From Escherichia phage vB_EcoM_PTE-Eco09, in the sequence record PQ306574.1: DNA of 64,000 nt; one strand, written 5' to 3'. Under the pieces are notes generated by a model. That model was not told the DNA's origin. It was given only the letters and a program-made list of their open reading frames with translations, and did no database searches. A program made the translations under genes and the position numbers. Of the stretch, positions 43,347 through 46,958 are shown in pieces (the first letter of the stretch is position 1; each line of letters begins with the position of its first letter).

Positions 43347-43928
43347 TTGTGTGAGGTGTTTGTTGTGGCAAAAACAAAATTTTGGGATATCGAGACACAG
43401 AAAGCGATAAAAGGTAGATTCTATCATGTCGATGGAATATTATACCATTTAAAGGATTCTGTAGCTGCTGGATTCCGAAAAGAAGGGTCCATATACAAAA
43501 AAGGTGATGTGGTAAGGGTATGTCTCCATAAAGAAGGATATTTATACTTTACATTTTACAACAATGGTCATAAACTTAATCTGTTTGTACATAGAGTTGT
43601 CTGGTTTTTAGAGTATGGTACTCAGGTTGAACGAATAGATCACATAGACCAAGACAAAACTAACAATAGACCGTCAAACATGAGAGAAGCAACCGAACAG
43701 CAAAATCAGTTTAACGTCTCAAAGAAAAAGGCTTGCCATAGCAAATATAAAGGTGTATCATTATCACCAAGCAAGAAAAAGCCGTGGAAGGCGTATATTG
43801 TTATCAATCGAAAGAATATACATCTAGGATACTTTGAGACAGAAGTTGAGGCGGCTAAGGCTTATGACCGTGCAGCACATGAAATAGTTGGCGAGTATGC
43901 TTATTTAAATTTTCCAAAAAGAGGATGA
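43347..43928 (+). CDS. free-standing HNH homing endonuclease with C-terminal AP2-type DNA-binding domain
   Basis: HNH_3-like HRVVWFLEYG...ERIDHIDQDKTNNRPSNM; AP2-like YKGVSLSPSKKKPWKAYIVINRKNIHLGYFETEVEAAKAYDRAA. No in-frame ATG; start is TTG 43347 or GTG 43356/43365. Confidence 0.7.
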   Translation: MCEVFVVAKTKFWDIETQKAIKGRFYHVDGILYHLKDSVAAGFRKEGSIYKKGDVVRVCLHKEGYLYFTFYNNGHKLNLFVHRVVWFLEYGTQVERIDHIDQDKTNNRPSNMREATEQQNQFNVSKKKACHSKYKGVSLSPSKKKPWKAYIVINRKNIHLGYFETEVEAAKAYDRAAHEIVGEYAYLNFPKRG

Positions 43929-44122: not shown

Positions 44123-45070
44123 ATGACGTATAACCCATTTACAAAAACGACCGCTACACTTAATGATTTCTTCGATGATCCAGAAGATAAACTGCCGGAA
44201 GGTGTGCATTTGATTGATATGTCGCAGCTTATGATTGCTACTATCTCACATACCTTTAAACCGGAAGATCCTATTAATGAAGGTATGATCCGTCATCTTA
44301 TCCTTGACACCATGCGTTATAATATGACAAAATTCAAAGAGCAATACCCAATTACGGTACTTGCCTTTGATTCAAGCAAAGGTTACTGGCGACGTGATAT
44401 CGCCCCTTACTATAAACGCAACCGTAAGGAAAAACGAGACGCAGATCCGCGTGATTGGGAGATGATCTTTGCTGCGATCAATAAGATCACCGAAGAGTTT
44501 AAAGAGAACATGCCTTATCACGTTATTAAGGTTGACAAAGTTGAAGCGGATGATATAATCGCTGTATTAACTAAAAAGTTTTCTGTAGAAGGTCGCCAGG
44601 TGCTAATCAACTCCGGCGATGGTGACTACACACAGTTGCACAAATACAAAAATGTGAAACAGTGGGCACCAGTACAGAAAGCGTGGAAGAAATGCAAATA
44701 TGGTAGCCCTTACAAAGACCTTATGGTAAAATGTGTTAAGGGTGACGCAAAAGACGGTGTAGCTTCTATCAAGTGCCGTAGTGATTTCATTATCTCACGA
44801 CTGGAAGGAGAACGAGCTAAACCAATTGCAACCAAATGGTTAGAGCAAATTTTCGATGCCGAAGATCCAAAGTCTTTGATGACAGAGGAAGAAGCACGAC
44901 GCTTTGACGAAAACCGCGAACTTATTGATTTTGAATTTATTCCTGATAACATCGAATATGAAATTTTGTTAGCATGGGAAAAATCTAAACCAGCACCACG
45001 CGGTAAAATTTATAACTATTTTGTAACAAATGCGTTAGTTAAAATGTTGCAGAAAATTGGTGAGTTCTAA
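44123..45070 (+). CDS. rnh: RNase H / 5'-3' exonuclease (FEN-1 family)
   Basis: 315 aa; GYWRRD, ADDIIAVL, SGDGDYTQLHKY, RGKIYNYF match remembered T4 RNase H. Confidence 0.9.
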   Translation: MTYNPFTKTTATLNDFFDDPEDKLPEGVHLIDMSQLMIATISHTFKPEDPINEGMIRHLILDTMRYNMTKFKEQYPITVLAFDSSKGYWRRDIAPYYKRNRKEKRDADPRDWEMIFAAINKITEEFKENMPYHVIKVDKVEADDIIAVLTKKFSVEGRQVLINSGDGDYTQLHKYKNVKQWAPVQKAWKKCKYGSPYKDLMVKCVKGDAKDGVASIKCRSDFIISRLEGERAKPIATKWLEQIFDAEDPKSLMTEEEARRFDENRELIDFEFIPDNIEYEILLAWEKSKPAPRGKIYNYFVTNALVKMLQKIGEF

Positions 45071-45080
45071 GGGTTGACAC

Positions 45081-45680
45081 ATGAAAGAACTTGAATTAAA
45101 ATACTATGCACACTCACAAATTGGCGTCGAAACCATCTGTGATTTGTGGGTGGCAATGTATGACGGGTACAATCTCTTAGACCGAGATAACATATTAAAA
45201 CACGAATTTTATTATGATACCGAAGATCATGCGCTACGTCAAAAAGGAATTTATGCACGACTTGACTGTAGAAAATCAGAGATCATGGTCAAAATGGGTG
45301 ATAATGAATCTGGACTATTCAACCGCGAGGAAATGACATTTTCAAATTGGGATGAGTTCGTCCATTTTATTGATAGTCTAGGGGTAAACTCCGACTATAT
45401 CACTGCAATAATGCAAGTAATGACATATCGCAAGTCATTGACTCTAGATATGGGTTGTGGTATAGTGGAAATGTGCAAAGACACTTTCTATTATGGCAAA
45501 GTAGGCGAAGGATTGGGAAACACTGCTCATTATGAACTTGAGTTCGAGTTAAAATCAGGTGATGAAAAAGCACTTGACATTATCCGAGAAATGATGCTAG
45601 AATATGTTGGTGACGATTTAAGTCCTAGCGAAATTTCAAAAGCTGAACGTGGTTTTCAATTAATGACGAAAGAGGGTTAA
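45081..45680 (+). CDS. CYTH-like (triphosphate tunnel metalloenzyme) domain protein
   Basis: N-terminal ExExK (MKELELKYY) and C-terminal ExExExK (HYELEFELK) signatures; 199 aa. Confidence 0.5.
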   Translation: MKELELKYYAHSQIGVETICDLWVAMYDGYNLLDRDNILKHEFYYDTEDHALRQKGIYARLDCRKSEIMVKMGDNESGLFNREEMTFSNWDEFVHFIDSLGVNSDYITAIMQVMTYRKSLTLDMGCGIVEMCKDTFYYGKVGEGLGNTAHYELEFELKSGDEKALDIIREMMLEYVGDDLSPSEISKAERGFQLMTKEG

Positions 45681-45685
45681 ATATT

Positions 45686-45961
45686 ATGACTGAACAGAAA
45701 AAAGAAAAAGTAGTATTCGATGAAAATGTACACGGAAATACCCTGGCACAACTGATTAAAGAAGCCAGCGATCAGAAAACCATTCAAGAAGCATATGGCG
45801 ATAAGATCAAAGAGATCAAACAGCGTGCTAAAGAAGAATTAGGCGTAGATGGTAAAATGTGGGGCATTCTGTTTAAACTGTATCACCAGCAACAGCGCGA
45901 AACCTTCGAAGCAGAACGCGACGAAGCGGTAGAACTCTATGATCGGGTGTTCAATGCTTAA
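45686..45961 (+). CDS. hypothetical protein (dsbA/33-region)
   Basis: 91-aa charged helical ORF. Confidence 0.4.
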   Translation: MTEQKKEKVVFDENVHGNTLAQLIKEASDQKTIQEAYGDKIKEIKQRAKEELGVDGKMWGILFKLYHQQQRETFEAERDEAVELYDRVFNA

Positions 45962-46208
45962 TGAACATGCGGTAAAAGCCGCGAATAAAACAGCAAACGG
46001 TCTTGCAATCGAAAAACTGGTTGTTGAAGAGGGATTGACTTATCTTGAAGCGACAACGCAGTTTGTAGAGGAAAACTCTATCGAATATGGTCACTATCAG
46101 AAGTATATTCCGGTGTCCATTATTGACAAGATCACACAAGAATGTATAGTAAATAGAACACTCAGGAAGGGAGTGATCGACGAACCAACCAACACTCTCG
46201 ATATTTAA
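45939..46208 (+). CDS. hypothetical protein (possible gp33-like late transcription co-activator)
   Basis: 89 aa; C-terminal ...EPTNTLDI resembles clamp-binding tails; position between rnh and 59. Tentative. Confidence 0.35.
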   Translation: MIGCSMLNEHAVKAANKTANGLAIEKLVVEEGLTYLEATTQFVEENSIEYGHYQKYIPVSIIDKITQECIVNRTLRKGVIDEPTNTLDI

Positions 46209-46217
46209 GGGGTATGT

Positions 46218-46898
46218 ATGATCAGAAACCGTCTTCCTCCAGATCCAGATATGCGAATTAATGCTAAATCTGTGTATATGTTATATTGCATGATGAAAGC
46301 TCATATGAACGGGCGTTATGATTGCGTAAAATACAATTGGAGGATGCGGTTGTCTGATGCCGCATTCAATAAACGCAGAGATAAGTATTATTTCGCAAAA
46401 TTAGCGGAAAAGTACAATCTAAGAGAATTATACTTCCTATTCCTAAGCAATCTGGTAGCTAATACCGATGCATGGGTAGGTGAAATCACCGATGTTGACG
46501 CATACGGGTTTTACATGGAGTACATCGGTAAAATCACTGATGCGGCAACACGATTTGACGATGACATTAAAAGTCTTGTATACTTCTCAGAGAAACGCGG
46601 GGTTACTCTTAAAGAGCTAATTACATATAATCCCGCAACCGAAACTAGCGGTATCTTTAAACTACTGCAAAATCGGATTATATCGTTTGAGTCGTTTATG
46701 TTGTTAGATAGCTTTCTAAATATAATCGACGAACACGACAAGGTAGCCAAAGACTTGATTTGGCAAACTTATAGTGTTAAAATGAAGGCGTACAAGAAAC
46801 TACTTGTTATTGACGCCGCAAAAGCAAGAGCATTATTTGTTAAAGTAGTTAAAGAGTGTAAAGAAATATCTCAATTAAAAGCCGAAACAAATAGTTGA
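46218..46898 (+). CDS. 59: helicase loader gp59
   Basis: 226 aa; SVYMLYCMMKAHMNGRYDCVKYNWRMRLSDAAFNKRRDKYYF and FLSNLVAN match remembered T4 gp59. Confidence 0.9.
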   Translation: MIRNRLPPDPDMRINAKSVYMLYCMMKAHMNGRYDCVKYNWRMRLSDAAFNKRRDKYYFAKLAEKYNLRELYFLFLSNLVANTDAWVGEITDVDAYGFYMEYIGKITDAATRFDDDIKSLVYFSEKRGVTLKELITYNPATETSGIFKLLQNRIISFESFMLLDSFLNIIDEHDKVAKDLIWQTYSVKMKAYKKLLVIDAAKARALFVKVVKECKEISQLKAETNS

Positions 46899-46958
46899 CA
46901 AGTAAATTTAAATCTGTATAATAGTCTAGTAAATTAATCAAAAGAAGGAATAGTGAAT

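Follow-up and report, generated by a model that had tools for sequence, protein, structure and literature searches.

Escherichia phage vB_EcoM_PTE-Eco09 (sequence record PQ306574.1), of which one stretch of 64,000 nucleotides (nt) was analysed (hereafter 'the window'), encodes between rnh and dsbA a protein of 199 amino acids (aa) that, judged from its sequence, is most aptly viewed as a YgiF-like triphosphate tunnel hydrolase that stands alone and whose tunnel is specific to the phages. We assign a probability of roughly 0.65 to the reading that this product is a catalytically competent YgiF-type enzyme of the CYTH/triphosphate tunnel metalloenzyme (TTM) superfamily, made up of the tunnel domain and plug helix and without a CHAD domain. 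The CYTH identification is already in public records and is not new: RB49ORF244c is annotated in the GenBank record of phage RB49 (AY343333) as 'similar to P45267, P30871, HI1598, ygiF' and was given as 'CYTH domain, E 0.0026' by Nolan et al. (2006, Virol J 3:30), and the exact sequence of the window appears as 'CYTH domain-containing protein' in UniRef and as 'inorganic triphosphatase YgiF' in IMG. The gene and its key elements are as follows:

45081..45680, plus strand: CYTH/TTM gene, 199 aa, ATG start; homologue of RB49ORF244c and equal to the protein of phage kvi (gene kvi_112).
45087..45101, plus strand: ExExK motif (E3, E5, K7), putative metal site 2 and phosphate binding; maps to E4/E6/K8 of YgiF.
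45252..45266, plus strand: strand Y58-A-R60-L-D62, with R60 corresponding to YgiF R56 (the catalytic arginine) in an ungapped profile alignment.
45534..45554, plus strand: E152-L-E154-F-E156-L-K158, with E154 corresponding to YgiF E160 (putative metal site 1) and E156 to YgiF E162 (putative site 2).
45636..45665, plus strand: plug-helix motif S186-K-A-E-R-G-F-Q-L-M, placed by alignments and by the helix of the model; its YgiF counterpart is SKAARGYHL.

A preliminary description of this DNA had read a CYTH/TTM protein from a 199-aa open reading frame (ORF) at 45081–45680 that begins MKELELKYY (residues 1–9; E3-x-E5-x-K7) and carries HYELEFELK near its C-terminus (residues 150–158; E152-x-E154-x-E156-x-K158). 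Coordinates, ATG, length, and both motifs agree exactly with our own reading, and the family assignment is borne out by the hidden Markov model search that had been proposed as a check: Pfam CYTH (PF01928) matches residues 27–191 above its gathering score of 23.2 (29.5 bits, E=8e-7), and most homologues have a precomputed PF01928 match. With a family profile built from 18 homologues, hhalign aligned residues 2–196 to Escherichia coli YgiF (probability 98.5%, E=2e-15), and in a search of the Protein Data Bank (PDB) sequences YgiF was the sole solved protein below E 1e-3 (E=6.5e-13). Given these three E-values, the two motifs are beyond chance. PHROGs places the protein in an unannotated family. 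An exhaustive profile search returned 3,222 relatives at E<=1e-3, of which only three, the phage clade, reached E<=1e-30; the remainder are cellular CYTH proteins of either ~200 aa or ~500 aa, the latter being the length of CYTH-CHAD proteins.

Structure prediction, likewise proposed in the preliminary description, points the same way. The AlphaFold2 model made from the 18-homologue alignment (mean predicted local distance difference test [pLDDT] 93.2, predicted template modelling score [pTM] 0.87) contains eight long beta-strands and a C-terminal helix (187–196), that is, a predicted eight-stranded antiparallel beta-barrel tunnel with a C-terminal plug helix. Its top Foldseek match is YgiF (E 1e-12, query template modelling score [TMq] 0.78), followed by plant TTM3-type proteins, Bacillus BH2851, thiamine triphosphatases, and archaeal SaTTM (TMq 0.56–0.63), with class IV adenylate cyclases at TMq 0.46–0.48. 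The preliminary description had held that its reading would fall if no CYTH fold were predicted or if the ExE residues varied among homologs; the fold is predicted and the ExE residues are invariant.

The residues on which catalysis depends in YgiF are retained throughout. Structural and mutagenesis work on YgiF (Martinez et al. 2015, PMC4641920) assigned E4, E6, and E162 to metal site 2, showed that E160 completes metal site 1, identified R56 as the catalytic arginine, and gave K69 the role of orienting the acidic patch. By ungapped profile alignment and hhalign, YgiF E4, E6, E162, E160, and R56 correspond to E3, E5, E156, E154, and R60 of the phage protein; K69 falls on K71 in pairwise BLASTP and one residue off in hhalign, beside a one-residue hairpin deletion. 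All six phage residues (E3, E5, E154, E156, R60, and K71) are invariant in the family down to homologues only 31–41% identical, as are the E152/E154/E156 triad, which aligns with YgiF E158/E160/E162, and the basic tunnel residues R60, K71, R82, R117, K187, and R190. The ExExK motif (E3-L-E5-L-K7) is invariant in family members and cellular relatives alike, and R82, E84, R117, E130, K187, and R190 are common to >90% of the cellular relatives (K187 in 100%, R190 in 91%).

The same residues bear on the class of activity. CyaB (Yersinia pestis, PDB 2fjt/3n10), which shares superfamily and fold with the phage protein, is the source of the 'adenylate cyclase' labels that several GenBank records carry; by these labels, the phage protein would be a class IV (CyaB-type) enzyme that forms cAMP or a different cyclic nucleotide during infection. 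Class IV adenylate cyclases need an HF motif four residues before ExExK (HFxxxxExExK), have alanine in place of the second glutamate of the C-terminal ExE, and carry a small neutral residue in place of the central arginine of the xRxR strand (Vogt et al. 2021, PMC8233210). The HF motif is absent from the phage protein, in which just M1-K2 precedes E3, and an N-terminal extension is impossible because a TGA codon stands in frame two codons before the ATG at 45081; E154-F-E156 is intact and invariant; and R60 is present and invariant. A cyclase is therefore highly improbable on sequence grounds, and the 'adenylate cyclase' label is probably wrong, even though a weak cyclase side activity, of the moonlighting kind reported for certain plant TTMs, may occur by analogy.

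The acidic patch that separates hydrolases from the polyphosphate polymerase Vtc4 is present, without the VTC-type basic replacement. Cet1-type and viral RNA triphosphatases (Cet1 1d8h, mimivirus 2qy2, vaccinia D1) provide examples of virus-encoded TTMs with the same acidic-patch, metal-dependent hydrolysis of the gamma-phosphate, and an RNA 5′-triphosphatase might act on triphosphorylated RNA, be it pppApC-type Okazaki primers that the adjacent RNase H later removes or transcripts whose decay would be altered; no Pfam match of the phage protein to the Cet1-type family (PF02940, mRNA_triPase) was obtained, its closest structural neighbours are of other types, and we consider this role improbable. 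As the three cyclase determinants fail, the acidic patch is kept, and a Cet1 match is lacking, the best-supported mechanism is a predicted two-metal reaction that hydrolyses the terminal phosphate off a triphosphate. We infer from these residues both an activity and a mechanism: the enzyme would most likely work as YgiF, AtTTM3, and thiamine triphosphatase (ThTPase) do, with E154 completing metal site 1, and would release diphosphate and inorganic phosphate.

Which triphosphate would be cleaved is a separate matter. Set against the 148 best cellular relatives, the 44 phage-clade sequences compared show fixed residues, seldom or never seen in cells, at eight positions of tunnel parity (Y9, K40, E42, Y58, D62, T115, T121, and Y138); position 58 is Val in P0045 and Ser in P0009. 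The cellular counterparts are N or S at position 42, A, G, or S but never an aromatic residue at position 58, and F at position 115; position 62 is R in 144 of the 148 cellular relatives versus D in the phage clade. Position 58 corresponds to W53 of ThTPase, which stacks the thiazole ring of the substrate (PMC8233210), and position 62 to the second arginine of the RxR strand. Inorganic triphosphate (PPPi) is the default substrate by homology; in view of the changed tunnel-parity positions, and of Y58 at the position of the ThTPase tryptophan, we think that an organic triphosphate, whether nucleotide-like or thiamine-like, is at least as likely. The modelled tunnel thus suggests an organic triphosphate rather than bare PPPi, and a PPPi specificity identical to that of YgiF is uncertain given the replacements R to D62, small residue to Y58, N to E42, and F to T115.

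The phage protein corresponds to residues 1–200, the tunnel domain, of the inorganic triphosphatase YgiF (PDB 5a60/5a61); YgiF has 433 aa and a CHAD domain, whereas the phage protein ends just past the plug helix and has no Pfam CHAD match. Further differences from YgiF are R58 to D62, G54 to Y58, and L164 to K158, the changes at Y9, K40, E42, T115, T121, and Y138, and a hairpin after K71 that is one residue shorter. The phage gene is not a recent capture of host ygiF. Within CYTH, the closest relation in sequence and structure is to the YgiF-type CYTH-CHAD proteins (cluster 1 of the sequence similarity network of Vogt et al. 2021), which share the SKAxRG plug motif but differ in their two-domain architecture. 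Stand-alone bacterial CYTH proteins of ~200 aa (such as P0044 and P0046, from metagenomes) have the single-domain architecture, length, and catalytic set of the phage protein and are the closest cellular matches to the phage profile (E 1e-19 to 1e-23); unlike the phage protein, they have both arginines of the RxR pair and, at position 58, a small residue. P0044 and P0046 (~197 aa) are encoded beside PhoU/PHO4 phosphate-transport genes in bacterial chromosomes. On two bacterial metagenome contigs (L005 2858-4187 and L011 1647-2981), the stand-alone CYTH gene of such a closest relative is transcribed divergently from PhoU_div-PHO4, and a gene for an RsmD-like methyltransferase follows it. A scan of GTDB genomes with P0046 found nothing. 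Mammalian ThTPase (3bhd, 5a64), of lower overall similarity to the phage protein than YgiF, has W/Y-x-R-x-R where the phage protein has Y58-x-R60-x-D62, with an aromatic residue and the central arginine present but aspartate in place of the last arginine.

Among phages, the region is 96–99.5% identical to that of RB49-like coliphages of the genus Krischvirus (FL37, AV108, kvi, and RB49). The protein is encoded in 58 phage records, eight of which hold an identical copy. Homologues of rnh occur in 1,574 phage records, and those with rnh identity of >=95% are exactly the 58 Krischvirus records, all others being <60% identical, so the CYTH gene is specific to this lineage among cultured T4-like phages. 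A scan of IMG/VR with the family alignment found only three close loci, all of them Krischvirus. CYTH genes recur in phages, namely in Krischvirus, in Aeromonas and Ralstonia phages, and in jumbo phages; since the remaining viral CYTH proteins of BFVD show no more than remote similarity (TMq <=0.55), phages have acquired such genes more than once. Two distant phages (P0043 and P0045) have the gene in the same rnh-CYTH-dsbA-33 slot, with flanking genes just 77–81% identical.

The gene is accessory, and it might be asked whether its product is a decaying or non-catalytic passenger, that is, a tolerated binding protein or an evolutionary remnant. Several depositors annotate it as merely 'hypothetical', constraint on it is relaxed relative to the neighbouring genes, and one copy, that of G2494 (L013 1501-2096), has a 1-bp deletion at alignment column 175 that splits it into ORFs of 66 and 130 aa. 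We nevertheless regard a passenger as very improbable: the full catalytic set is invariant in sequences down to 31–41% identity, tunnel-parity positions are 71–75% conserved versus 31–41% elsewhere, and the gene is intact in 57 of the 58 isolates and holds its position in the distant relatives. Purifying selection and a fixed slot in the replication gene cluster are both observed.

Several points nevertheless weigh against a catalytically competent YgiF-type enzyme. The frameshift in G2494 reflects a natural knockout or else an error of sequencing; if real, it implies that the phage can do without the gene, at least in laboratory culture. The second arginine of the RxR strand is an aspartate (D62), although this is no strong argument against activity, since the equivalent R54A replacement in AtTTM3 affected activity little (PMC4641920). 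The assignment of residues as inward or outward follows strand parity in a predicted model and not coordinates, NCBIfam gave no equivalog match and no meaningful match, the literature yielded no functional (biochemical or genetic) study of any phage CYTH protein, and the expression timing proposed below is read from consensus matches.

Within Krischvirus, the gene is a mosaic of two segments:

45105..45524, plus strand: allelic cassette, codons 9–148; ~52–54% nt identity among the window, Skers, and L016 classes, and 73–93% to the RB49 class.
45525..45680, plus strand: constant 3′ part, codons 149–199; 94–100% nt identity, at the level of the backbone, among all Krischvirus-backbone alleles.

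In sliding-window nt comparisons with Skers and RB49, the flanks are 97–100% identical, identity falls over codons 9–148 to ~50% (Skers) and 73–93% (RB49), and it returns to 97–100% over the last 51 codons. A third class (P0042, from metagenomic contig L016) shows the same pattern, and the three cassettes share boundaries in backbones that are 92–100% identical. The proteins fall into at least four classes, 39–58% identical over residues 9–148; the C-terminal 51 residues are 94–100% identical in three of them and 86% in the fourth (P0034). In the proteins of P0043 and P0045, divergence is proportional in both parts. Between classes, identity is 75% at tunnel-parity positions, 41% at outward strand positions, and 39% in helices and loops: by the model, the exterior has diverged around a conserved chemistry.

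Positive selection was considered as the cause of the variable segment and rejected. Synonymous sites of the cassette are saturated against Skers (proportion of synonymous differences [pS] 0.77), and the ratio of nonsynonymous to synonymous divergence (dN/dS) against RB49 is 0.36, compared with 0–0.13 for rnh, dsbA, 33, and 59 in the same pair; the cassettes are therefore alleles of long standing that recombination has exchanged, and not products of recent positive selection. Extra constraint on the 3′ end, as from an embedded promoter or overlapping element, was also rejected, because its synonymous divergence (dS 0.03–0.19) equals that of the flanking backbone. T4-like phages are known to show intragenic mosaicism and co-conversion by homing endonucleases (among them SegG, in the 32/59 gap), and on either side of the CYTH locus some of the phages have homing endonuclease genes and others do not; neutral or endonuclease-driven mosaicism is hence a sufficient explanation, and selection for surface diversity is possible but unproven.

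Further mosaic features were seen nearby. The 3′ end of rnh contains a smaller patch (44891-45020) with 77% identity to Skers, 68–85% to RB49, and 97% to L016, the rest of rnh being 96–100% identical. An HNH-AP2 homing endonuclease gene at 43347-43928, between gene 34 and a 61-aa ORF, occurs in eight of the 58 Krischvirus records, all eight of which carry the RB49-type CYTH allele, and phages with a CYTH gene identical to that of the window are without it; since this endonuclease gene and the window CYTH allele are never found together elsewhere, the window represents a combination absent from the phage collection. Skers (L001 5802-6398) and G2494 (L013 3298-3593) have an HNH endonuclease gene in the 59/32 gap, the site of segG in T4; in the window, this gap (46899-46952) measures only 54 nt.

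The preserved tunnel and exchanged exterior also invite an interpretation in terms of host defence, by which the enzyme would be a counter-defence or host-manipulating hydrolase of a triphosphate-bearing immune or stress nucleotide (the chain-terminating 3′-deoxy-3′,4′-didehydronucleoside triphosphates [ddhNTPs] of prokaryotic viperins, an alarmone, or thiamine triphosphate [ThTP] derivatives), with the allelic cassettes reflecting an arms race with host proteins that recognize or inhibit it. Several deep allele classes do persist in near-identical backbones, the gene is accessory and evolves ~2.5 times faster than its neighbours with the higher dN/dS given above, and the tunnel departs from that of cellular PPPi hydrolases (PPPases) in having an aromatic residue at the ThTPase tryptophan position. 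Yet a search of PADLOC-DB gave no family at E<=10, the literature offered no report of counter-defence by a phage CYTH protein, T4-like phages commonly show intragenic mosaicism, which may be neutral or the work of homing endonucleases, and with an overall dN/dS of <1 and saturated synonymous sites there is no signal of positive selection; we therefore judge this interpretation unlikely. A broader proposal, which we hold to be doubtful, is that of a phage effector, not a housekeeping PPPase, that destroys a host-made triphosphate nucleotide (an antiviral chain terminator, alarmone, or immune signal precursor), the 40–58%-identical N-terminal cassettes being maintained by host sensors or inhibitors of the enzyme surface. 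If that were true, the constant tunnel would fix the chemistry and recombination would exchange the exterior.

The link to immunity suggested in the preliminary description is speculative. Literature searches found nothing on phage TTM counter-defence or on phage enzymes hydrolysing ddhCTP, nor on Krischvirus together with adenylate cyclase or ygiF in coliphage biology, and a preprint on essentiality (HIDEN-SEQ) does not cover Krischvirus. A 2026 paper reports that the cytosines of phage SAP (OZ034687) are modified and those of TB34 (OX001802) are canonical, despite 99.96% identity, and describes the modification pathway of Krischvirus as unknown. The CYTH gene was rejected as the cause of this difference because the CYTH proteins of both phages are identical to that of the window and thus to each other.

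The surroundings of the gene are compact:

44123..45070, plus strand: rnh (T4 RNase H, 5′–3′ exonuclease; Pfam RNaseH_C and 5_3_exonuc_N), ending 10 nt before the CYTH gene.
45069..45073, plus strand: Shine-Dalgarno-like AAGGG, read from the sequence; overlaps the rnh stop codon (45068-45070).
45686..45961, plus strand: dsbA (Pfam Phage_DsbA), 5 nt after the CYTH gene.

On the plus strand, the order is 61-aa ORF, rnh, CYTH gene, dsbA, 33, 59, and 32, and the long tail fibre gene 34 lies further upstream on the opposite strand. The CYTH gene belongs to a cluster of genes for replication and nucleotide metabolism that all run on one strand. T4 has no gene between rnh and dsbA, which are separated there by just 8 nt, and the comparison with T4 in the preliminary description (only small dsbA/33-type genes in this interval) is thus correct. 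The longest gp33 ORF (45939-46208) overlaps the 3′ end of dsbA by 23 nt; gp33 is annotated as shorter (84 aa, from a later start) in some records (AV108 and Skers), so that Krischvirus genomes disagree on the annotated start codon of gene 33. No structured RNA or tRNA was found in the window.

Four promoter-like sites were recorded in this region:

44532-44559, coding strand: near-perfect sigma-70-like consensus site.
45074..45102, plus strand: sigma-70-like TTGACA-N17-TAAAAT, a consensus match; spans the CYTH start codon, its end lying just short of the 5′ boundary of the cassette.
45574..45603, plus strand: sigma-70-like TTGACA-N18-(TG)TAGAAT, a consensus match; in the constant 3′ part, ~80 nt upstream of dsbA.
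46895-46922, coding strand: near-perfect sigma-70-like consensus site, coinciding with the annotated early promoter of RB49 upstream of gene 32.

Sigma-70-like sites are enriched on the strand of the CYTH gene (23 versus 12.6 +/- 3.4), and no late promoter (TATAAATA) was found near it. Early expression of the gene is likely, and it would be expressed jointly with rnh, dsbA, 33, 59, and 32.

The cassette polymorphism and the changed tunnel are the sole features that might raise the interest of this gene. If the enzyme hydrolyses only PPPi, it would be a minor metabolic accessory; if the altered tunnel selects a nucleotide-like triphosphate, it would represent a new enzyme class by which phages edit host nucleotide pools or signals. 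For jumbo phages, a comparative review has speculated that CYTH triphosphatases might degrade unmodified nucleoside triphosphates. The 'adenylate cyclase' labels in GenBank should not be propagated. In the intragenic cassette, Krischvirus offers a natural experiment, with the same backbone and active site behind different exteriors, that poses the question of what selects surface diversity in a phage enzyme.
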